Origin: Thermodesulfobacteriota bacterium
Lineage (GTDB): Bacteria; Desulfobacterota_D; UBA1144; Nemesobacterales; JAJCZQ01
Direction of reading: 5' to 3'
Assembly: GCA_965215275.1 (NCBI GenBank)
Contig: OZ244044.1
Span: 1,536,001-1,600,000, forward strand
Length of the DNA: 64,000 nucleotides
The notes under the pieces are model-generated. The model was not told the origin of the DNA. It saw only the letters and a list, made by a program, of their open reading frames with translations, and made no database searches. The stretch's first letter is position 1; each line of letters starts with the position of its first letter. Of the stretch, positions 2 to 51,591 are shown piece by piece. The position numbers were made by a program, and so were the translations under genes.

Positions 2-1426
2 TTGAATTTTAACTTTGTCACCCAAGTGATAAGCGGAACACCAACTGCTGCGATGCCTAAGACTGATTATACATGGAGAGCAACGGACAGAGACGGATAT
101 ACGGCTGAATTGACGTTCAGTATAACGATAACGGCCCTGTCCTTTGACGGGCAGGTACCTTCTTCTCCTGTTTTGTACTTGGCGGAGAGACCAGTAACAC
201 CGTTAACACTGCCTGCTGCAACGGGAGGTACTGCTCCGTATACTTACGTTCTGACCCCTGAATTACCTGATGGACTGGACTTTAACGATACCACCAGAGT
301 TATAAGCGGGACACCGACTGCTGCAACGCCCGTGAATACCTATACGTATACCGTTACAGACGCAGACGGAACTGAGACGGAGGTGACGTTCGATATTGCC
401 GTAGCAGCACACTTTTCAGGCGTTGAGATAGAAAGCAGGTTTTACACGGTCGGTACGGCGGTAACGGAAACGCTGCCCGAGGCAATCGGACATAACGGAA
501 CGGTAACGTACAGTTTAACTCCTGCCCCTCCTGCTGAATTGACCTTTACCCCTGCCACCCGGGTTATAAGCGGAACACCGACTGCTATACAGAAGAATGC
601 GAGGCTTTATACGTATAGTGCTGCTACCGGTGCAGGTGTACCTGCTCGAACGTTGGTGTTCCATATCACGGTAAGAGATGAACCGGACACAAGGCCGAGT
701 TTCGGCGGTGAGACGGTAGAAGATAAGGAATACATAATATCGGGAAGTCCGATAACCCCGTTCGTGCTGCCTGAGGCAACGGGAGGGAATGGAACGGTAA
801 CATACAGTCTGACTCCTCGTTTACCAGACGGATTGATCTTTACGCCTGTTGATCGAGAGACAAGCGGGACACTGACTGCTGCGATGTCTGAGACCGATTA
901 TACGTGGAGTGCCACGGACGAGGATAACGACAGGGCTGGGTTAACGTTCAGTATAACGGTGGAAGAGGACAGCGAACCGGCATTCAGCGTGACGACGATA
1001 GAAGATCAGGTGTACACGGGGGAAAGAATAAGGCTGCCGGTAGCAACGGGAGGGAACCCGCCGTTAAGATACAGTATAGATCCTCGTTTACCGACGGGAA
1101 TGAGATTGAACGAAGACACAGGGGTCATAAGCGGGACGCCCGCGAGTGCGTCACCTGCAACTTCTTACACGTACACGGTAACGGACAGGAATGGAGACAT
1201 GAAAGGGTTGACTTTCAGGCTCAGTGCAGAGGTTTCTTCTACTCCAGGACCAACAACAGGAAGACCAGGAACGTCAGGTAGTGATTCAGGCGGAGGTGGA
1301 GGAGGATGTGCCGTCTCAGATCAGAGCAGCACTGCTTCTGATATTCCCGGAGTAATTGCATGTCTGATACTTATTCCTGTATCAGTAGTGATAAAAAGGA
1401 AGAGAAGATCTCAGATAAAGACTTAG
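2..1426 (+). CDS. Surface protein paralog 1 (5' truncated by window): putative Ig (He_PIG-like) repeats plus Gly6-Cys/TM/basic C-terminal tail
   Basis: About 4.5 repeats of ~95 aa (LPxATGG..YSLxPxLPxGLxF...RxISGTPT...YTYTxTDxDG); C-terminus GGGGGGC-hydrophobic-KRKRR shared with paralogs 2 and 3. Confidence 0.85.
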   Translation: MNFNFVTQVISGTPTAAMPKTDYTWRATDRDGYTAELTFSITITALSFDGQVPSSPVLYLAERPVTPLTLPAATGGTAPYTYVLTPELPDGLDFNDTTRVISGTPTAATPVNTYTYTVTDADGTETEVTFDIAVAAHFSGVEIESRFYTVGTAVTETLPEAIGHNGTVTYSLTPAPPAELTFTPATRVISGTPTAIQKNARLYTYSAATGAGVPARTLVFHITVRDEPDTRPSFGGETVEDKEYIISGSPITPFVLPEATGGNGTVTYSLTPRLPDGLIFTPVDRETSGTLTAAMSETDYTWSATDEDNDRAGLTFSITVEEDSEPAFSVTTIEDQVYTGERIRLPVATGGNPPLRYSIDPRLPTGMRLNEDTGVISGTPASASPATSYTYTVTDRNGDMKGLTFRLSAEVSSTPGPTTGRPGTSGSDSGGGGGGCAVSDQSSTASDIPGVIACLILIPVSVVIKRKRRSQIKT

Positions 1427-25097: not shown

Positions 25098-25127
25098 TTG
25101 ACATTCGTTCATAATACTTGGTAAAAT
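25098..25127 (+). promoter_or_regulatory. Sigma70 promoter of paralog 2
   Basis: TTGACA-18bp-TAAAAT with extended -10 TG; conserved at 43656-43685. Confidence 0.7.
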
Positions 25128-25173
25128 ATCAATGTTATGAAAAATCCAAACATAAAAACACGTAGTTCCATTA

Positions 25174-25182
25174 CCCCCCCCC
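25174..25182 (+). repeat. Poly-C tract 1 (C9) in leader of paralog 2
   Basis: Counted directly; the frame from ATG 25137 stops at TAA 25221-25223. Confidence 0.85.
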
Positions 25183-25243
25183 ATGTATACCTGACCTTTC
25201 AGCCTGGTATAAGTATTCTGTAAGAAAAATGTTTAAGATAATA

Positions 25244-25252
25244 CCCCCCCCC
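25244..25252 (+). repeat. Poly-C tract 2 (C9) in signal-peptide region of paralog 2
   Basis: ATG 25229 is one base out of frame with the main ORF; C8 or C11 restores MFKIIPPPSKSLLTLVLFLLFIISMAAKG. Confidence 0.85.
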
Positions 25253-25301
25253 ATCTAAGTCATTACTAACTTTAGTCTTATTTCTTCTGTTTATAATTTC
25301 T

Positions 25302-28300
25302 ATGGCTGCAAAAGGACAGAGCAGCTTAGAAGAAACATTATCTGAATGCAGAGGAATGAGTTCAGACACGGAAGATCCGTTATACGGATGTCAGTGGCAT
25401 CTGAAGAACACGGGGCAGTTAAGTATTTCCGGAAAGAGAATAACAGCAGGAGAAGATATAAACATAGAGGGAGTGTGGAACGAAGACGTATACGGTACCG
25501 GAATTAACGTAGCAATAGTAAGTGACGGTATCGACCTTTCTCACGAGGACCTTTCTGATAAGGTCCGTTCCGGACCGAACTATGATCTTTCTGACAGTTC
25601 ATCCTTTACCGGAACACGAGCGGCAGGTGTAATAGCAGCAACTGGATATAACGGACTGGGAGTAAGAGGAACAGCACCTGGTGCGAGTATATACAGTTAC
25701 GGGTTAACTGGTGATCTCAGGGAAGCGGACGCAAAAGATGCAATGGTCCGTAATAAGGAAATAACTGCTGTATCGGTTAACGGCCGGGGATCTGAGGAGG
25801 GAGCTTTTTTTCAGGAGGCTTCAACTTCCTGGGAAGAAGGAGTGGAACTTGGTATAAGTAAAGGGTTTTATGGTAAAGGTGTGTTTTACGTCCGGGGAGC
25901 AGGGGACGGGCATGAGAATAACGATCAGGCTAATTTTTCTGAATATTCTAATTACTACGGCGTAACTGCCGTGTGTTCAACAGACGGCTTTGGAAAGAAG
26001 AGTATATTTTCAGAAGAGGGAGTAAATCTATGGGTATGTGCACCTGGTTCTGATATTGTAACTACAGATAACAACAACGATTACGTTGTAACTTCCGGAA
26101 CATTTCTATCAGCTTCACAGGTTGCAGGAGTGGCAGCACTGCTGAGAGAGATAAACGGGCAGCTGAGCTGGAGGGATGTAAAGCTTATACTTGCGGGTTC
26201 AGCACGGCAGAACGATTTTTTTGACATGAGCTGGGAGACAGGAGCTGTTAAATACGGTTCTGATACGGAAAGATATAAATATAATCCTAAGTATGGTTTT
26301 GGCGTGGTAGACGCAGAAGCAGCCGCAGAACTTGCCAGAAGCTGGAAAGGCGTAGGTGAAATGAGGACCGTTACAGCTTCTTCAGATAATGAACTGACAA
26401 TCCCTGATGGAGAAGGAGAAGCAGACGGTGTCCTTGTCTCCAGACTTATGATACCGGACCTGGAAGAAACAACATTTACGGAGTTTGTAGAAGTAGAACT
26501 TGTTTTCTCGTGTGACTGCTTACAGGACCTTAATATACAGATAACCTCTCCTTCCGGGACAGTGTCTGAACTTGTGCGGGAGTTTGCCGGGGAGTCTGTA
26601 AGTGGATCTTCAAATGAAGAAGAAAACTGCGTCAGTTACCTGAGAAGAACACATCGTTTCGGGTCGGCTAAACACCTCGGAGAAGACCCTTCCGGAGAAT
26701 GGATCCTTAAGATCTCCGATACTGCTTCCGGAGATGAAGAAGATGGAAAAAACACTGTTACCTTACACTCATGGAGCGTTAAGGTGTATGGGAATTTTTA
26801 TCAGGGACATGGCAGTGAGACAGGTACTAAACATCATGAAATAACCTTTGGTGGTGCAACGATAGATAATCAAGTATATAAAGTAGGTAAAACAATAACA
26901 CCATTAGAGCTACCTAACGCAACAAGAACAGGAGGGGGTACTTTCAGTCTTGCATTGTCTCCTCGTTTATTACCTGCTGGATTGAGTCGTAACGGCAGAA
27001 CTATAAGTGGAACACCAACTGCACCGAAGCAAGAGACTACTTATAGATGGATTGCTTCTATAGGACATGATAATACTGAGATAAGGTTCAACATCACGGT
27101 AGAAGCTAACACAGAACCCACCTTCTCAGGAGCAACTGTCCCAGATCAGATATGGACGGAAGGGGTAAGGATACCAACGTTACGTCTTCCTAATGCAACA
27201 GGAGGTAACGGAACTTTAACATACTTTTTAAGTCCTTCGCAGCCAGTTGGTATAAACAGACAGGACAACAGGTTATCCGGAACACCTACGGAACCTAAAG
27301 GAAGAACTCGTCATACATGGACAGTCAGAGACGAAGATGGTGATGAAGATATTATTGAGTTCTATATTACTGTAAGAGATAAAGATGACGTACCGAGCTT
27401 CGGCAGTGAGACTGTAGAAGATCAGGTGTATGTTGTACGCTCAATAGCAGGTCTTCCAGTAACTCTGCCAGAGGCAACGGGAGGGAATGGAGCATTAACT
27501 TACATTTTACTTCCTTTTTTACCTCGTGGATTGAATTTTGATCCTGACACCCGAGTAATAAGTGGCACACCCACCCGTGCATCCCCTATTAGGAATATGA
27601 TACATACAGTATCAGACATAGATGGAAGTAGTGCTCAATTAGAGTTCAGGATAACAGTAGAACCAAACACGGAACCAACCTTCGGCAATGAAACTATAGA
27701 TAATAAGGTGTACATTAACGGCATTACAGCAGTAATGGAAACACTGCCTGAAGCAACGTCAGGGAATGCACCATTAACTTACAGTTTAACTAGTCTTGGG
27801 TTAATTGATCTTAATTTACCTCGTGGATTGAATTTTGATCCTGACACCCGAGTGTTAAGTGGAACACCCAACCTTGACGCACACGCACGAATACTTCCTG
27901 TAACTCGTACATATACATATAAAGTAACAGACAATGATGGAGATACAGCAGAGATAACGTTCAGTATAACAGTAGAAGAAGACAGCGAACCGGACTTCAG
28001 CGGTGTGACAATACCAGATCGTGTGTACACGGGGAGAACAATAGAGCTGCCAGAGGCAGCGGGAGGGAATGCACCGGTTACTTACAGTATAACACCTGGT
28101 CTGCCAGCTGGATTGATATTTAACGAAGTAACGCGGGAAATAAGTGGGACACCCAGGAGTGCATCATCTGCTGCTTCTTACACGTATACGGCAACAGACA
28201 GGAATGAAGATACGGATACATTGGATTTCATGCTCAGTGTAGAGGTTACTTCTACTCCAGGACCAACAACAGGAAGACCAGGAACGTCAGGTACTGATTC

Positions 28301-28439
28301 AGGCGGAGGTGGAGGAGGATGTGCCGTATCAGAGCAGAGCAGCGTTGCTTTTGATATTCTCGGAGTAATGACATGTCTGATACTTATACCTGTATCAGTA
28401 GCTATCAGAAGGAAGAGAAGAGCTCAGATAAAGACATAG
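25302..28439 (+). CDS. Surface protein paralog 2: inactive kexin-like S8 domain, P-domain, 5 Ig-like repeats, Gly6-Cys/TM tail; real start upstream across poly-C frameshift
   Basis: DPLYGCQWHL, LSWRDV, YGFGVVDA, P-domain GEDPSGEWILKISD; triad positions read VAIVSDG, FTGTRAAG, SGTFLSA. Confidence 0.85.
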   Translation: MAAKGQSSLEETLSECRGMSSDTEDPLYGCQWHLKNTGQLSISGKRITAGEDINIEGVWNEDVYGTGINVAIVSDGIDLSHEDLSDKVRSGPNYDLSDSSSFTGTRAAGVIAATGYNGLGVRGTAPGASIYSYGLTGDLREADAKDAMVRNKEITAVSVNGRGSEEGAFFQEASTSWEEGVELGISKGFYGKGVFYVRGAGDGHENNDQANFSEYSNYYGVTAVCSTDGFGKKSIFSEEGVNLWVCAPGSDIVTTDNNNDYVVTSGTFLSASQVAGVAALLREINGQLSWRDVKLILAGSARQNDFFDMSWETGAVKYGSDTERYKYNPKYGFGVVDAEAAAELARSWKGVGEMRTVTASSDNELTIPDGEGEADGVLVSRLMIPDLEETTFTEFVEVELVFSCDCLQDLNIQITSPSGTVSELVREFAGESVSGSSNEEENCVSYLRRTHRFGSAKHLGEDPSGEWILKISDTASGDEEDGKNTVTLHSWSVKVYGNFYQGHGSETGTKHHEITFGGATIDNQVYKVGKTITPLELPNATRTGGGTFSLALSPRLLPAGLSRNGRTISGTPTAPKQETTYRWIASIGHDNTEIRFNITVEANTEPTFSGATVPDQIWTEGVRIPTLRLPNATGGNGTLTYFLSPSQPVGINRQDNRLSGTPTEPKGRTRHTWTVRDEDGDEDIIEFYITVRDKDDVPSFGSETVEDQVYVVRSIAGLPVTLPEATGGNGALTYILLPFLPRGLNFDPDTRVISGTPTRASPIRNMIHTVSDIDGSSAQLEFRITVEPNTEPTFGNETIDNKVYINGITAVMETLPEATSGNAPLTYSLTSLGLIDLNLPRGLNFDPDTRVLSGTPNLDAHARILPVTRTYTYKVTDNDGDTAEITFSITVEEDSEPDFSGVTIPDRVYTGRTIELPEAAGGNAPVTYSITPGLPAGLIFNEVTREISGTPRSASSAASYTYTATDRNEDTDTLDFMLSVEVTSTPGPTTGRPGTSGTDSGGGGGGCAVSEQSSVAFDILGVMTCLILIPVSVAIRRKRRAQIKT

Positions 28440-43655: not shown

Positions 43656-43685
43656 TTGACATCCGTTCATAATACTTGGTAAAAT
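43656..43685 (+). promoter_or_regulatory. Sigma70 promoter of paralog 3
   Basis: TTGACA-18bp-TAAAAT, near-identical to 25098-25127. Confidence 0.7.
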
Positions 43686-43731
43686 ATCAATGTTATGAAA
43701 AATCCAAACATAAAAACACATAGTTCCATTA

Positions 43732-43741
43732 CCCCCCCCCC
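43732..43741 (+). repeat. Poly-C tract 1 (C10) in leader of paralog 3
   Basis: Counted directly; keeps ATG 43695 in frame with ATG 43788. Confidence 0.85.
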
Positions 43742-43802
43742 GTGTATACCTGAACTTTCAGCCTGGTATAAGTATTCTGTAAGAGCAATGTTTAAGATAA
43801 TA

Positions 43803-43811
43803 CCCCCCCCC
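43803..43811 (+). repeat. Poly-C tract 2 (C9) in signal-peptide region of paralog 3
   Basis: Leads to TAA 43815-43817; C8 or C11 restores PPPSKSLLTLVLFLLFILVIAAKGQ in frame with 43915. Confidence 0.85.
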
Positions 43812-43914
43812 ATCTAAGTCGTTACTAACCTTAGTCTTATTTCTTCTGTTTATACTGGTAATAGCTGCAAAAGGGCAGAGCAGCCTGGAAGAAACATTAT
43901 CTGAATGCAGAGGT

Positions 43915-46900
43915 ATGAGTTCAGACACGGAAGATCCGTTATACGGATGTCAGTGGCATCTGAAGAACACTGGGCAGTTAAGTATTTCCGGAAAGGAAAT
44001 AACAGCAGGAGAAGATATAAACATAGAGGGAGTGTGGAACGAAGACGTATATGGTTCTGGAATTAACGTAGCAGTAGTAAGTGACGGCATCGACCTTTCA
44101 CATGAGGACCTTACTGCAAACGTCCGTTCCGGACTGAACTATGATCTGTCTGACAGTTCATCTTTTAGTGGGACACGAGCGGCAGGAGTAACAGCAGCAA
44201 CTGGATATAACGGACTGGGAGTAAGAGGAACAGCACCGGGTGCGAGTATATACAGTTACAGGTTATCCGGTGATCTCAGAGAAGCGGACGCGGTGGTCCG
44301 TAATAAGGAAATAACTGCAGTATTGGTTAACGGCCGGGGATATGAGGAAGGAGCTTTTTTTCAGGAGGCTTTGGCTGAGTGGGAAGAAGGAGTGGAACTT
44401 GGAATAAGAGAAGGGTTTTATGGTAAAGGTGTGTTTTACGTCCGGGGAGCAGGGGACGGTCATGAGAATAACGATCAGGCTAATTTTTCTGAATATTCAA
44501 ACTATTACGGAGTAACGGCCGTTTGTTCAACTGACGGTTTTGGAAAGAAGAGTATATTTTCAGAAGAGGGAGTAAATCTATGGGTATGTGCACCTGGTTC
44601 TGATATTGTAACTACAGATAACAACAACGATTACGTTGTAACATCCGGAACTGTCCTTTCAGCTTCACAGGTTGGAGGAGTGGCAGCACTGCTGAGAGAG
44701 ATAAATGGACAGCTGAGCTGGAGGGATATAAAGCTTATACTTGCGGGTTCAGCACGGCAGAACGATTTTTTTGATATGAGCTGGGAGACTGGAGCTGTTA
44801 AATACGGTTCTGATACGGAAAGATATAAATATAATCCTAAGTATGGTTTTGGCGTGGTAGACGCAGAAGCAGCTGCAGAACTTGCAAAAAGCTGGAAAGG
44901 CGTTGGAGAGATGAGGACCATTACAGCTTCTTCAGATAATGAGATAACAATTCCTGATGGAGAAGGAGATGGAGAAGGAGAAGCAGACGGGATCCTTGTT
45001 TCCAGACTTATGATACCGGACCTTGAAGAAATATTTACGGAATTCGTTGAAGTAGAACTTGTTTTTTCTCATGACCGCTTACAGGACCTTGATATAAAAA
45101 TAACTTCTCCTTCTGGGATTGTTTCGGAACTTGTCCGGGAGTTTTCAGGGGAGGAAGAAGATGCTGATATCAGTTACCTGAGAAGAACACATCGTTTCGG
45201 GTCGGCAAAGCACCTCGGAGAAGACCCTTCCGGAGAATGGATCCTTCATATAACTGATACTGCTTATGGAGATGAAGAAAATGAAGAAAACACCGTTACC
45301 CTGCACTCATGGAGCGTTAAGGTGTATGGGCATGTTTTTTTATCAGACCGTGGCAAGGAGATAACTACTAAAGCTTTAACCTTCGGCAATCAGACGGTAG
45401 AAGATCAGGTGTGGGGTAACGGCAGCGCAGTAACGTTAACTCTGCCTGCTGCTACCGGAGGTAACGGAACTTTAAATTACAGTTTAACTCCTAATCCACC
45501 TCTTGGATTGACCTTTACCCAAGGCACCAGAACGTTAAGTGGAACGCTCAACGTCAGTGGACAACTACCCGTAACTACTACTTATACTTACAAGGTAACT
45601 GACGATGACGGAGATTCGGATACTCGCACCTTCTCTATTACTATAGAAGCTGATACAGAGCCGAGCTTTGGAGGTCAGTCTATCCCAAATCAGCTATATC
45701 TTGAAGGGACAACGTTAGGTCTTCCGGTAACGCTGCCTGAGGCAACGGGAGGGAATGGTCAGTTAAATTACAGTTTATCTCCTGCTTTACCAACTGGATT
45801 GGAATTTAATCCTGATATCAGAGTTATAAGCGGAACTCCAACTCAACATATAGTTATCCCTGAAACTTATACATATAAGGTAACGGACAATGACGGAGAT
45901 ACAGTTAATCTGAGGTTTCACCTGTCTGTATTATTCAACACCCGGCCAATCTTTGGTAACAGGATGATAACAGATAAGGTGTATTATACGTTTACAGGAG
46001 TAACGGAAACGTTACCTGAGGCAGCACAAAATAATAATCCACCTTCAACTTACAGTTTAGTTCCTGCATTACCTGATGGACTGATCTTTACCCCTGCTAC
46101 CAGAGAGATAACAGGAACACCGACCACTGCAATGTCTGAGACTGATTATACGTATACGGTTGCTGATCTAAATGGAGATACGGATGAGTTAACGTTCAGT
46201 ATCACTGTATTAGCAGGAGCAGACACGGAACCGACCTTCGGAAGTGAAACTATAGATAACAAGGTGTATATAAACGGAGAAGCAGTAAATGAAACACTGC
46301 CTGAAGCAACGTCAGGGAATGCTCCATTAACTTACAGCTTAACTAATACTGGGTTAACTATTTTGACTTTACATCGTGGATTGGATTATACAGACAGAGT
46401 TATAAGTGGAACACTCAATATCAATACTCCAAGAATACTTCCTCACACTTGGAGTTATACATATAAAGTAAGAGACAATAATGGAGATACAGCAGAGATA
46501 ATGTTCAGTATAACAATAGAAGAAGACAGCGAACCGGACTTCAGCGGTGTGACAATACCAGATCGTGTGTACACGGGGAGAACAATAGAGCTGCCAGAGG
46601 CAGCGGGAGGGAATTTACCGGTTACATACAGTATAACACCTGATCTGCCAGCTGGATTGAGATTTAACGAAGTAACGCGGGAAATAAGTGGGACACCCAG
46701 GAGTGCATCGACAAGGACTTACACGTATACGGCAACGGACAGGAATGGAAATACGGATACATTGGATTTCATGCTCAGTGTAGAGGTTACTTCTACTCCA
46801 GGACCAACACCACCACGAGGACCAAGAACGTCAGGTAGTGATTCAGGCGGAGGTGGAGGAGGATGTGCTGTATCAGAGCAAAGCAGCGTTGATGAAGATA

Positions 46901-46983
46901 TTCTCGGAGTAATGGCATGTCTGATACTTATACCCGTGTCAGTAGTGATAAGAAGGAAGAGAAGAGTTCAGATAAAGAACTAG
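43915..46983 (+). CDS. Surface protein paralog 3: inactive kexin-like S8 domain, P-domain, 5 Ig-like repeats, Gly6-Cys/TM tail; real start upstream across poly-C frameshift
   Basis: N-terminal half nearly identical to paralog 2; triad positions VAVVSDG, FSGTRAAG, SGTVLSA. Confidence 0.85.
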   Translation: MSSDTEDPLYGCQWHLKNTGQLSISGKEITAGEDINIEGVWNEDVYGSGINVAVVSDGIDLSHEDLTANVRSGLNYDLSDSSSFSGTRAAGVTAATGYNGLGVRGTAPGASIYSYRLSGDLREADAVVRNKEITAVLVNGRGYEEGAFFQEALAEWEEGVELGIREGFYGKGVFYVRGAGDGHENNDQANFSEYSNYYGVTAVCSTDGFGKKSIFSEEGVNLWVCAPGSDIVTTDNNNDYVVTSGTVLSASQVGGVAALLREINGQLSWRDIKLILAGSARQNDFFDMSWETGAVKYGSDTERYKYNPKYGFGVVDAEAAAELAKSWKGVGEMRTITASSDNEITIPDGEGDGEGEADGILVSRLMIPDLEEIFTEFVEVELVFSHDRLQDLDIKITSPSGIVSELVREFSGEEEDADISYLRRTHRFGSAKHLGEDPSGEWILHITDTAYGDEENEENTVTLHSWSVKVYGHVFLSDRGKEITTKALTFGNQTVEDQVWGNGSAVTLTLPAATGGNGTLNYSLTPNPPLGLTFTQGTRTLSGTLNVSGQLPVTTTYTYKVTDDDGDSDTRTFSITIEADTEPSFGGQSIPNQLYLEGTTLGLPVTLPEATGGNGQLNYSLSPALPTGLEFNPDIRVISGTPTQHIVIPETYTYKVTDNDGDTVNLRFHLSVLFNTRPIFGNRMITDKVYYTFTGVTETLPEAAQNNNPPSTYSLVPALPDGLIFTPATREITGTPTTAMSETDYTYTVADLNGDTDELTFSITVLAGADTEPTFGSETIDNKVYINGEAVNETLPEATSGNAPLTYSLTNTGLTILTLHRGLDYTDRVISGTLNINTPRILPHTWSYTYKVRDNNGDTAEIMFSITIEEDSEPDFSGVTIPDRVYTGRTIELPEAAGGNLPVTYSITPDLPAGLRFNEVTREISGTPRSASTRTYTYTATDRNGNTDTLDFMLSVEVTSTPGPTPPRGPRTSGSDSGGGGGGCAVSEQSSVDEDILGVMACLILIPVSVVIRRKRRVQIKN

Positions 46984-47068: not shown

Positions 47069-47289
47069 TCTCTGTTAAAGTCCTCTTTTCTTTAGCTAAT
47101 CCATACACAGAAGCAAGTATGAAACCCTACTTAACTTTGATTTAGATACAGACCTGTATAACAAGCGTCTTAAATACCACAACCTTATCAAGGAATAATA
47201 GTGAGCAGAAAATCAAAGATAATTTTACTAATAGATGGGGATTTTGATCGCATTGATGCTTGTTTTTTTAATCTCGGGTAACATTGTAT

Positions 47290-47540
47290 ATGGTTCCCAG
47301 AATTTTCGATCATATGTGATAAACAGTATAGCTGGTTCTACAGGGAGACAACATTTTTATAATAATCCCCTAAAATTATTTACAGCACTAAAAATTACAA
47401 ATAAACAAATGATTGATTTACATAGCAAATCATCTGTTTTGTTTAACAAGGTAAGACAAGTTTTGGAAGAAACTAAAATACTACTATCTCTTTTGGATAT
47501 TCCCTTATCAAAATTAACCAAAACAGATATAACTGCATGA
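47290..47540 (+). pseudogene. Probable remnant of type I R-M specificity subunit (HsdS C-terminus)
   Basis: FRSYVINSIAGSTGRQ and LFNKV..ETKILLSLLDIPLSKL resemble the HsdS TRD end and conserved C-terminal helix; 5' boundary approximate. Confidence 0.45.
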
Positions 47541-48334
47541 CCATTGCCACCGGAACCATTCAATACCAATTAGGAACTGTGCCGGTCACCGGATGCGGTT
47601 TCTCTTATTCCGTTGCTGAATTGGACACAGCATTGTCCGGTTCCGTAGCAGAAATTTTACATGATGATTCTGGAAAGGCAGATATTAGGGCACTGCTTGC
47701 CGGGATTGTTGAAACTGATTTTGAAAAAGGCGAAATTGAACGGATTTTATCCAATACTAAACCGCCGGAAAACTGGCGTGTAGGTGAAGCACTGGCAGAG
47801 TCTTATTTAGTTCATCAAAAGAACTGCTTTTTCCCTTGGCCGAGTGGCCGTGACGAACGCAAGAGTGGTTCCAGTCTTTCCGGTGCAGACTTGATCGGTT
47901 TTCAATCTAACGGTACCGATGATTTTTTTGCATTCGGCGAGGTAAAAACATCGACTGAAAACAAATATCCTCCCGGAACTATGTATGGTCGCACAGGCTT
48001 GAAACAGCAGCTTGAGGATCTAAAATATGATGTACAAATAAAGGACGATATCTTTAGATATCTTGGCTTTCGTGCACAAAGATCAGCATGGAAAGACCGG
48101 TTCAAGAGAGCAGCAAAAAATTACATTCAAAGCAAAACCAATATTCGTGTTTTTGGTTTTATGGTCCGCGATGTAGAGCCCAATAAGGACGATATTCATA
48201 CTCGAGTAACTAAACTCGCCAAGGATCAGCACGCAGATATGGTGATTGAATTGCTTGTGCTTTATTTACCGCAAGACAGCATCGGGCAACTTAGTGATAA
48301 AGTTGTCAGTAGTAGACATGGAGGTGTTGTATGA
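47537..48334 (+). CDS. Hachiman HamA-like PD-(D/E)xK nuclease
   Basis: WRVGEALAE, GADLIG, FGEVKTS; ATGA-coupled to the Ski2-like helicase. Confidence 0.65.
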   Translation: MTIATGTIQYQLGTVPVTGCGFSYSVAELDTALSGSVAEILHDDSGKADIRALLAGIVETDFEKGEIERILSNTKPPENWRVGEALAESYLVHQKNCFFPWPSGRDERKSGSSLSGADLIGFQSNGTDDFFAFGEVKTSTENKYPPGTMYGRTGLKQQLEDLKYDVQIKDDIFRYLGFRAQRSAWKDRFKRAAKNYIQSKTNIRVFGFMVRDVEPNKDDIHTRVTKLAKDQHADMVIELLVLYLPQDSIGQLSDKVVSSRHGGVV

Positions 48335-51300
48335 ACGTAACAGAAGCATCTTTGGACAAAATTGATCAGCACTGGGCAGTTCAGGCCATTGGTGCCGAAC
48401 AACTCAAGCAGGCTTTTGAACTGTCTAACCGACTCTTCGTGGAAAAGACCGTGGGCGGTCAGATACATTTCAACTATACATTTTTACAGTCTGATTACGA
48501 GTTGCTCGACAGAGTTTCTATGGCTTACGAAATGGCAGCAATTGAAGGGTTAAATGATTTTCTGAACCCGACTTCCATTGAGAAGGAACTAAGAGAACAA
48601 TGCGCATCAGGTGCTTATCGGGCATTTGAAATTCGAAGGCTCTTTAATTTCCCTGCTACCAATGAACAACGGATTTTTCACGTTTTACACCTCTCGTCAT
48701 TGGCTTATTGCGGAGATAGGTGGACGGATCTACGCCGCTGGTACAACGAAAACGAAAACAGCATTCAGGTGCCTTCTGTTGCAAATGCCCCTTGGGACGG
48801 ACGTTTGCTCAATCGTCTGTTTGAATGCTGGATTCGGCTTTTCAGAAAAAAACGCTGGGACGACCTGGACCGTATCCGCGAGATCATTGCCGGGCTTAGA
48901 GAAGATCAGAAACAGTATGAGGCTGGAGTTCTGAACGAACCCAGTAATGCTGAAAACCACACTATGGCACTACGGCTCATAAGTCTGTATCACTGGGCCA
49001 AAGCTACGGAAATTCTAGCTAAATATATGCTGCAAGGTGAACCGGCCAGTGTTGCCACTTTGTTGAACAAACATTTTGAATCAGCTATCGAATCCTCTGC
49101 AGACAGTGCCGACTCACAACTCGAAATATTGTTAAGGTGGTTGCAAATTGCAAGTCGTCAGATGATCACTGATTCCATCTGGTGGGTCGCAAGTCGAATC
49201 AATACCCGCGTCACAAAATTTATAAATGAAGTAACCAAGCAGCAGGCTTTGTTCGAATTATTACCGCCGCAGCGAGCTGCTATTCAGGAACATGGGTTGC
49301 TTGATCAAGCTGCAACCGCCATCGTTGTTGATATGCCAACCTCGGGTGGTAAAACATTGCTTGCTCAGTTCCGAATATTGCAGACTCTCAATCAGTTTAG
49401 TCAAGATGAATTAGATAAAGGATGGGTGGCTTATGTGGCCCCGACAAAAGCTCTTACCGCACAAATAACTCGAAGCCTCAGACGTGATTTTGAACCAATC
49501 GGGGTAAAGGTTGAGCAACTCACTGGAGCCATTGAGATTGATACTTTTGAGGAAGACCTTTTAGCACAGACAGAAAAAACTGATGCCTTCGATGTTTTAG
49601 TCGCTACGCCGGAGAAACTGCAACTTATCATTCGCAACAAAAAGGTGACTCGCCCTCTGGCTCTTGTTGTCATGGATGAGGCTCATAATATTGAGGATGA
49701 AACCCGTGGATTAAGAATTGAATTATTGCTGGCAACGATCAAGGGTGAATGCAGCACGGCCAACTTTTTACTGCTGATGCCTTTTGTTGAGAATCCAGAA
49801 ATTCTTGCCCGTTGGCTCGCGCAGGATATCAACGCCGGGCGATCAATAAGTTTTGGAACGACACCATGGAAGCCTAATGAAAGAATTGTGGGTATGTTCA
49901 AGGCGGAAGCCGATGACTCCGTCAAGGCTGGATGGCGCCTGAAATATGAAACTCTTACCACCACGCCAAAGACTATTCATCTCTCAGGTGAACATACTGT
50001 GGGTGGAGTGAAACCTCTAAATTTCTCGAAAAGCAAAGTTCTGAAAAAAAACAAACAAGATAAAATAACTTGGCAGACTGCGGCAATGGCTCGAATTATG
50101 TCTGATCGTGGAACAAGTATTGCTGTAGCCAATAATACCGACTGGGTTTGGAACATGGCTCGAAAAATTTGTGAGACCTTGGAACCATTCAATTCGCTTC
50201 CTAATGAAATCTTGCTGGTCCAGAATTTTCTTCGAACAGAAATAAGCACTAATTTTGAACTTATCAATATGCTCTCTCATGGTGTAGGGGTTCATCATGC
50301 CGGACTGTCCGATGAAGTTAGAACCCTTATGGAGTGGCTTGCTGAAGAAGGAAAGTTGCGGGTGCTTTGTGCAACAACAACTATTGCACAGGGCTTAAAC
50401 TTTCCGGTTTCATCCGTCTTTTTAGCTTCGAACAAATATCAATATGGGAAAGAAATGTCGCCTCGTGAGTTCTGGAACCTCGCGGGCCGTGCAGGTCGTA
50501 TGAAAAACGACAGCGTAGGTGTTGTTGGTCTTGCTGCTGGCAATGAACCTGATAAAATAATTGACTATGTATCCCGTGCAACTGGTGCACTTGCCTCCCG
50601 TTTGGTGATGATGCTTGATGAACTTGAACAGGCAGGAAAGTTGAATGAGTTGGAGGCTGTTTTTCAAAATGAACAATGGGAAGATTTTCGTTGCTATGTC
50701 GCACATCTCTGGAATGAAAAGAAAAACCTTGATGCGGTTCTTTTAGATACAGAGCAACTTCTCAGAAACACCCTTGGATATGGATGGCTCGAAAGCCAAA
50801 CTGATCAGAAGCAGAAAGCCGAAAAACTTCTGGAAGTTACCAAAGAATATGCTAGAACCCTCTCAGAAAATCCTGGACATGCGTCGCTTGCCGATATGAC
50901 AGGCTTCTCCCCAGAAGGTATCGGCCAAGCGTTAGCTGGAATAAACTCTCTGGAAAATAAACTCACGGTTGATGACTGGAAACCTAACAGTCTATTTGGC
51001 GGGCAGTCCGGCATGGCTGATCTCTATGGGGTTATGCTGCGGATTCCGCAGTTGAAAGGCAACCTTGAAGAGATTACCAATCGAGGACTTAAGCACAGCC
51101 AAATAGCAGACATTACCAAAGCATGGGTTAACGGTAAAAGCATTGAGGAGATCGCAAGAGATTTTTTCAAGGGTGATGAAGATCAGACAAAGGCTCTAAC
51201 TTTAGCGTGTAAAGCAATCTACAAAACTCTGGTGAATAACGGGACTTGGGGAATATCAGCATTAAGTCGCTTGTCAGGACTTGATTTTGATCAATTGTCG

Positions 51301-51591
51301 GAGTCTGAAAAACGCCAGATTAATATCATTCCCGCAATGATTTATTACGGAGTTAAATCAGAAGAAGGCATTTTGTTACGCATGAACTCTGTGCCAAGAA
51401 GTATTGCGGAATCTCTTGGTACCGTCATGAAAGATTCAGTATCCAAGGAGAACTGTACTGTTCAGGACGCACGATTGTTTTTGAAAGAATCTGATATGTC
51501 TGCGTGGGATAAGGCTATCCCACAAGCATCATCTCTGTCTGGAGAGGAATATAAGCGAATTTGGAAAATACTTTCAGGAAAAGATAGATGA
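48331..51591 (+). CDS. Hachiman HamB-like Ski2-type SF2 helicase with long N-terminal helical domain
   Basis: MPTSGGKT, ATPEK, DEAH, HHAGL, ATTTIAQGLNFP, NLAGRAGR. Confidence 0.8.
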   Translation: MNVTEASLDKIDQHWAVQAIGAEQLKQAFELSNRLFVEKTVGGQIHFNYTFLQSDYELLDRVSMAYEMAAIEGLNDFLNPTSIEKELREQCASGAYRAFEIRRLFNFPATNEQRIFHVLHLSSLAYCGDRWTDLRRWYNENENSIQVPSVANAPWDGRLLNRLFECWIRLFRKKRWDDLDRIREIIAGLREDQKQYEAGVLNEPSNAENHTMALRLISLYHWAKATEILAKYMLQGEPASVATLLNKHFESAIESSADSADSQLEILLRWLQIASRQMITDSIWWVASRINTRVTKFINEVTKQQALFELLPPQRAAIQEHGLLDQAATAIVVDMPTSGGKTLLAQFRILQTLNQFSQDELDKGWVAYVAPTKALTAQITRSLRRDFEPIGVKVEQLTGAIEIDTFEEDLLAQTEKTDAFDVLVATPEKLQLIIRNKKVTRPLALVVMDEAHNIEDETRGLRIELLLATIKGECSTANFLLLMPFVENPEILARWLAQDINAGRSISFGTTPWKPNERIVGMFKAEADDSVKAGWRLKYETLTTTPKTIHLSGEHTVGGVKPLNFSKSKVLKKNKQDKITWQTAAMARIMSDRGTSIAVANNTDWVWNMARKICETLEPFNSLPNEILLVQNFLRTEISTNFELINMLSHGVGVHHAGLSDEVRTLMEWLAEEGKLRVLCATTTIAQGLNFPVSSVFLASNKYQYGKEMSPREFWNLAGRAGRMKNDSVGVVGLAAGNEPDKIIDYVSRATGALASRLVMMLDELEQAGKLNELEAVFQNEQWEDFRCYVAHLWNEKKNLDAVLLDTEQLLRNTLGYGWLESQTDQKQKAEKLLEVTKEYARTLSENPGHASLADMTGFSPEGIGQALAGINSLENKLTVDDWKPNSLFGGQSGMADLYGVMLRIPQLKGNLEEITNRGLKHSQIADITKAWVNGKSIEEIARDFFKGDEDQTKALTLACKAIYKTLVNNGTWGISALSRLSGLDFDQLSESEKRQINIIPAMIYYGVKSEEGILLRMNSVPRSIAESLGTVMKDSVSKENCTVQDARLFLKESDMSAWDKAIPQASSLSGEEYKRIWKILSGKDR

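Follow-up and report, generated by a model that had tools for sequence, protein, structure and literature searches.

The second of two cytosine runs in the leader of a furin-like pseudoprotease gene very probably acts as a slipped-strand phase-variation switch for a surface protein. The gene, here called paralog 3, lies in a stretch of 64,000 nucleotides (the window, to which coordinates refer unless marked as genome) within a genome that is a single 1.99-Mb contig. The run in question, tract 2, begins five codons past a start codon, ATG2, and its length would decide whether a predicted signal peptide and the frame of a 1,000-residue surface protein are read as one. Replication slippage would alter the length, probably reversibly, and if ATG2 is used and the product is exported and anchored at the surface, then any given cell would keep most of about 50 paralogs silent and express a minority whose membership changes. 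The outcome would be a variable coat of noncatalytic furin-like binding domains carried on Ig-like stalks. Tract 1, the first run of the leader, may tune translation from ATG2 through an upstream ORF. The genome has what slipped-strand phase variation leads one to expect: an overrepresented repeat whose length would alter expression (139 runs, 49 of them in predicted signal-coding leaders), changes of length between near-identical genomes, and off alleles that selection appears to have kept.

The main ORF of paralog 3 (43801..46983, on the forward strand like its leader elements and the other family members in the window) extends 1060 codons from stop to stop, giving 1022 amino acids from the listed Met at 43915. 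It carries Pfam S8 (kexin/furin-like), P, and He_PIG domains, the last forming an Ig-like stalk, and the best PDB matches of its S8/P region are furin and kexin (furin alignment E 5e-29). The protein ends in a conserved Gly-rich-Cys-hydrophobic-basic tail (46850-46983) that found no NCBIfam match and probably anchors the protein at the surface. One of the paralogs has a gene for an Rce1-like (CPBP) protease as its neighbour (genome 680830-681114). Two other family members fall at least partly within the window: paralog 2 (25098..28439), with the same promoter, a double leader, and a lost catalytic triad, and the 3' half of paralog 1 (2..1426, comprising the He_PIG stalk and tail), whose single leader run, a C13 at genome 1533632, falls beyond the edge of the window. 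Directly after paralog 3, at 47235-51591, come two ORFs without family matches and then a 1086-aa DEAD/Hel308-like helicase, a region that is possibly a defence island.

In all, 57 kexin-like S8/P-domain/He_PIG genes, present as 58 ORFs, take up 176 kb, or 8.8% of the genome. As in active S8B proteases, the S8 domain of paralog 3 is followed by a P domain, but at the positions of the Asp/His/Ser triad and the oxyanion Asn it has S, S, V, and D, respectively. The triad is retained in only 7 of the 58 ORFs (lost in 51), compared to 63 of 73 homologs from elsewhere. A leader run is found in 49 of the 57 genes, none of which has the triad, and no frame-setting leader run is found in the seven genes whose triad is intact. 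A Fisher test of run against triad loss (p=3e-8) was rejected as evidence, because the genes form one clade. In a tree of 56 rows from this genome and 21 homologs (two partial ORFs were left out), a split supported at 0.998 sets the run-bearing genes apart, with the intact genes nearer the outgroup; it follows that the pairing of leader run and triad loss counts as a single event, after which the clade expanded. Within the expanded clade, the active site was lost stepwise, first His (to Arg), then Ser, then Asp. One S8 gene (genome 513692-518958) is split by an internal G13 and has a G11 just upstream of its ATG; its sister is a triad-intact gene.

The leader of paralog 3 had been described in an earlier note, made from the sequence alone, as a double poly-C leader nearly identical to that of paralog 2, and so it is: tract 1 is C10 (43732-43741), tract 2 is C9 (43803-43811), and the 61-nt gap between them equals that between the C9/C9 tracts of paralog 2 (25174-25182 and 25244-25252). 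Downstream from the -35 box, the leaders of the two paralogs are nearly identical when aligned, and apart from their four tracts the 64-kb window has no C or G run of at least 7, in keeping with the note's remark that it had noticed no other run so long. Transcription would start from a predicted sigma-70 promoter (promoter 1, 43656..43685: TTGACA, an 18-nt spacer, and an extended -10, TAAAAT), which in a consensus scan agrees with 11 of 12 positions, has the TG, and is conserved across paralogs. The first start codon, ATG1 at 43695, comes 9 nt past the -10 box without a Shine-Dalgarno sequence, though such sequences are used elsewhere in the genome; a distance of 9-10 nt recurs in 30 of 50 family promoters. 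The upstream ORF that it opens (43695..43817) passes through tract 1 as the note wrote and at C10 shares the frame of ATG2, ending after 40 codons at the TAA at 43815. The corresponding frame of paralog 2 ends 5 nt upstream of the second ATG.

Between the tracts, a degenerate second promoter-like block (43750..43778, CTGAAC-17-TATTCT) was recognized by reading the sequence; the consensus scan did not detect it. It probably derives from promoter 1 by duplication and decay. A clear copy (TTGACC-17-TACAAT) lies between the tracts of one paralog, at genome 206486. In paralog 3, the block reiterates the layout of what precedes it, a -35-like box, 17 nt, a -10-like box, 9 nt, ATG2 (43788), five codons, and a run, so that the double leader likely arose when a unit of promoter, ATG, and run was duplicated in tandem. 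In the leaders at genome 421717, 633539, and 652456, a run has the 5' flank of tract 1 on one side and the 3' flank of tract 2 on the other, the product expected from recombination between the two runs.

The region from ATG2 to 43875 comprises tract 2 and, in the main frame, a basic and a hydrophobic stretch, together making up a predicted signal peptide of about 29 residues if the run is in frame. Pattern and hydropathy fit a Sec signal with a basic n-region, an h-region, and small residues, the cleavage site having been read by eye. Upstream of Met 43915, the best 11-residue Kyte-Doolittle mean is 3.82, whereas the best within the first 60 residues from that Met is 1.52, and a gene call starting there omits the predicted signal, as the note had warned. 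The note's extended signal peptide of about 58 residues needs revision: the full extension would be nearer 60 residues, and ATG2 begins a predicted signal of typical length. The N-terminus from ATG2 is homologous to those of nine naturally in-frame paralogs, which start with ordinary predicted signals of about 27-31 residues, and paralogs with a single run have the same N-terminus; these two likenesses argue that tract 2 is the switch. At C9, the length in the assembly, it is out of frame, and at C8, the length in one sequencing run, it is in frame.

What does tract 1 do? The note supposed the two tracts to be serial on/off switches, but among the five double-leader genes with tract 2 in frame, tract 1 is unfused in four, and both runs are in frame in only 1 of the 28 double leaders. 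That the tracts vary is borne out by the many combinations of length across the 28 and by the C8 form of tract 2 in paralog 3 itself. Tract 1 determines where the upstream ORF ends: fused to the frame of ATG2 in 8 of the double leaders, from -5 to +8 nt relative to ATG2 in 16, and 34-40 nt before it in 4. Tract 1 thus appears to rephase the upstream ORF rather than serve as a second strict switch, and a graded effect on translation of ATG2 through re-initiation is plausible.

The runs are far from a local peculiarity. Over the whole genome there are 787 C/G runs of length 5, 78 of 6, none of 7, 6 of 8, 68 of 9, 32 of 10, and 33 longer. The 139 runs of at least 8 compare with fewer than one expected: geometric extrapolation from C5/C6 gives about 8 runs of length 7, about 0.8 of length 8, and 0.08 of length 9. 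Among 31 genomes searched, this one alone has no C7/G7 run. The family's 58 ORFs account for 82 of the 139 runs (59%), counting those within 150 nt, and just 28 of the 139 lie deep in long ORFs, compared with 72 of 78 C6/G6 runs and, among A/T runs at least 8 long, 188 of 272. Among 32 ORFs scanned next to the 57 other runs, 10 encode restriction-modification (R-M) or DNA-methylase proteins, 2 SAM methyltransferases, 2 glycosyltransferase-like proteins, 1 a sulfotransferase, and 2 TPR proteins, with 6 giving no match; the classes named are the usual ones for contingency genes. The TPR proteins represent a second family in which a C run lies about 232 nt past the ATG, the frame being kept in some members and broken in others (genome 19539, 20737, 31545, 1068992, 1899949, 1901573, 1914729, and 1964984). 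Three further paralogs with function unassigned (genome 94069, 1295437, and 1301357) have a run of G9-G10 separating the ATG from a GGA that resembles a Shine-Dalgarno sequence, possibly a spacing switch. Both mutS (868 aa) and mutL (617 aa) are present with open frames, so if both work, rates of slippage should be lower.

Among the 49 genes with leader runs, 25 are one base too long, 12 one base too short, and 9 in frame, with 3 unscorable. With 9 of 46 on, the shortfall from one third does not reach significance (p=0.06, with genes that are not independent of one another). The prevalence of a single out-of-frame state invites the thought that out-of-frame is the working state, with +1 ribosomal slippage on CCC, a known phenomenon, or slippage by RNA polymerase giving steady, low amounts of protein. 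The one-base-long state of the 25 genes is moreover reached through three alleles of equal total length (A+C9, T+C10, and A+C11), and a Pro-Pro-Pro stall sits before the stop. Programmed recoding is nonetheless unlikely: 12 genes would need the opposite shift and 9 none, leaving no single conserved direction; the lengths of the runs differ in the DNA itself from one sequencing run to another; no stimulatory RNA structure is evident (fold z=+1.02); EF-P is present (efp has an open frame); and equal runs occupy promoter spacers in relatives. Recoding may add a leak to the switch without being the main control.

Those relatives offer another way to view the runs. Neither the leader DNA nor the S8 domain was found in the 30 relatives searched; in a genome of the same genus, G001 (80% complete), whatever matched the family alignment did so weakly, the best match (E 8e-19) falling in the Ig-like part, and scans of metagenomes produced no relatives by protein and one pattern match, itself without BLAST similarity to the genome. 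The nearest ParB match (78%) is labelled as an uncultured Spirochaetia, but a search for flagellin was negative, and ribosomal protein L2 stands no nearer to a presumed Borrelia entry than to others. Runs of C9 or more are nonetheless plentiful in G011 (130) and G025 (113), with 21 in G001. Many are poly-G runs that lie as spacers between -35 and -10 boxes, at 56 sites in G011, 10 in G025, and 6 in G001 (control, 0), with loci that include L072:1502, L097, L098, L101, and L103. Spacers were 14-16 nt in all 13 of the G011 sites read, and in G001 four such promoters precede Ig-like lipoproteins.

Perhaps, then, tract 2 now is, or used to be, a poly-G spacer in an antisense promoter; on lengthening, it would set off antisense transcription through the leader, and the gene would fall silent. 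The minus-strand flanks of the runs do resemble the poly-G-spacer promoters of the relatives: a score of at least 10 of 12 is reached by 12 of the 53 runs close to starts of family ORFs, as opposed to 0.6% of AT-rich random sites, and the dinucleotide TA stands before 81 of the 139 runs, compared with 8% of C5/C6 runs. The comparison is post hoc, however, and counts one event only, since the paralogs share one ancestor. At tract 2 the spacer would be 14 nt and the -35 box matches at only 4 of 6 positions, the flank has second duties as stop codons and as coding sequence for the basic n-region, and none of 24 first tracts has such a match. Antisense silencing is accordingly a poor candidate, less probable than recoding, and we regard the likeness as a weak hint about where the runs came from. 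The base next to a run shows a further regularity: A-preceded runs peak at C9 and T-preceded runs at C10 or more, outside the family too (26:9 versus 1:16, p=3e-6). In dislocation mutagenesis a flanking base can convert into the run, and our guess is that the TA and A/T biases reflect such conversion under selection for frame.

Slipped-strand switching at tract 2 leads one to expect lengths that vary between near-identical genomes. Four public sequencing runs from two studies (X1, X2, X4, and X5, three of them from one study, and one perhaps the source of the assembly) were compared as assembled contigs, which drop minority variants. X1 yielded a 104-nt contig over 43747-43851 with no substitutions and tract 2 one C shorter, i.e., C8, at a depth of 15.8, compared to 13.6 for a unique single-copy neighbour. 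The nearest paralog differs from paralog 3 at 5 positions in this interval, so the contig belongs to paralog 3 and puts it in frame. The evidence for C8 at tract 2 is this one contig from one sequencing run; the deletion is not listed among contigs of X2, X4, or X5. At tract 1, three contigs of X5 have C8, a weak observation at low depth. Contigs with a C put in at 43802 were set aside, as a T+C11 paralog aligns identically. A second region has eight homopolymers, two of them multicopy and six with unique flanks. Five of the six match the assembly in every sequencing run that bridged them, in 16 of 16 checks of sequencing run by tract. The sixth, at genome 1505400, has 12 Cs in X1 but C11 in X2, X4, and X5, and the surrounding 5.19-kb contigs of X2 and X4 have no substitution. 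Taking this agreement with the C12/C11 difference, the lengths in the assembly are mostly real, and changes arise on an otherwise identical background; the invariance of five of six suggests that switching may be slow.

The same comparison bears on whether the lengths are homopolymer miscalls of a long-read assembly and the genes truly in frame. The genome does come as a single contig, and C8 in X1 against C9 in the assembly could mean that tract 2 was called in error, drawn to the length common among paralogs. But independent contigs agree with the assembly in every check on five homopolymers, ORFs are not broken by A/T runs, and a fragmented relative, G001, has the same peak at C9; furthermore, the contigs of X2, X4, and X5 lack C8, so sequencing runs differ regardless of the assembly. 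Genome-wide, the idea is largely refuted, and as an account of tract 2 it is very improbable.

Off alleles have not been left to drift. Among 40 off or ambiguous ORFs, 37 are intact to the C-terminal tail and 3 are broken farther downstream, and dN/dS relative to paralog 3 ranges from 0.17 to 0.44 (about 0.26 over 47 pairs; about 0.31 for intact enzymes), values that indicate that off alleles are still under selection. The least credible account is then a graveyard of decaying duplicates, permanently killed by runs that are mere mutational hot spots: catalytic residues are gone from 51 of 58 ORFs and 3 of the 40 are broken twice over, but the other 37 are open over kilobases, their dN/dS is like that of intact enzymes, and paralog 3 is in frame in X1.

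About 9% of a 2-Mb genome (the 176 kb noted above) is devoted to one enzyme-dead family of predicted surface proteins. Phase variation at such scale is known mainly from mucosal pathogens. That the family expanded as it acquired its probable frame switch suggests that a host or phages put this uncultured bacterium under strong pressure to diversify. The 28 double leaders offer a natural panel for asking if a run in an upstream ORF grades a phase switch. There is also a practical consequence: gene callers place most family starts downstream of the predicted signal, and the proteins would be assigned to the wrong location.

A broader and more doubtful proposal, which we put forward tentatively, is that this is the largest homopolymer contingency system among the surveys compared (139 runs against at most 81-82 genes, though runs and published phase-variable genes or loci are counted by different definitions). 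About 50 dead furin-like decoys would form a randomly reshuffled coat, under a two-tier leader in which run 2 sets the frame and run 1 one of three levels via the upstream ORF, and relatives of the same order would have arrived at a like outcome by another route, with poly-G spacers in the promoters of Ig-like lipoproteins.

The proposed switch would work like those of opa in Neisseria, whose repeat lies in the signal sequence, and of the poly-G loci in Campylobacter. C. jejuni is without functional mismatch repair. For Neisseria, one survey gives 54, 47, and up to 82 phase-variable loci, and pentamer repeats in opa, with 11-12 opa genes in the gonococcus (PMC5953494). The opa set resembles the present family in being a set of scattered paralogous surface genes, each switched singly by repeat number near its 5' end. 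Unlike opa, the family has a mononucleotide C run and 49 paralogs that would switch, 28 of them with a second run in an upstream ORF, and encodes not beta-barrels but pseudoproteases of furin type, borne on He_PIG stalks and ending in a putative anchor. In Campylobacter, a survey reports runs peaking at G9 (53%) and G10 (26%); the number of phase-variable genes in a strain ranges from 5 to 81 (PMC6321876). The peak at 9 and 10 is shared, and so are the gene classes (surface, glycan modification, and R-M); what differs is the number, 139 runs as defined here, the concentration of 59% of them in one family, mostly off, and the intact frames of mutS and mutL. Homopolymer phase variation has also been proposed for the Pmp and Cpn1054 paralog families of Chlamydia pneumoniae (PMC4514472), which are like this family in being paralog families with homopolymer tracts, their proteins being unrelated.

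With furin and kexin (S8B), the family shares the S8 and P domains, but it has no match to the pro-domain, has lost the triad and (in paralog 3) the oxyanion residue, and is stalked, multicopy, and probably phase-gated. Loss of the triad recalls Clostridioides CspC, to which the NCBIfam match is weak, far below cut-off. Literature searches, with subscription journals outside their coverage, found no paper on this pseudoprotease/poly-C system. The proposed mechanism is a known one, and what is new is its setting: a family of about 50 pseudoproteases, leaders that have been duplicated, and a repertoire of very large size alongside intact mismatch-repair genes.
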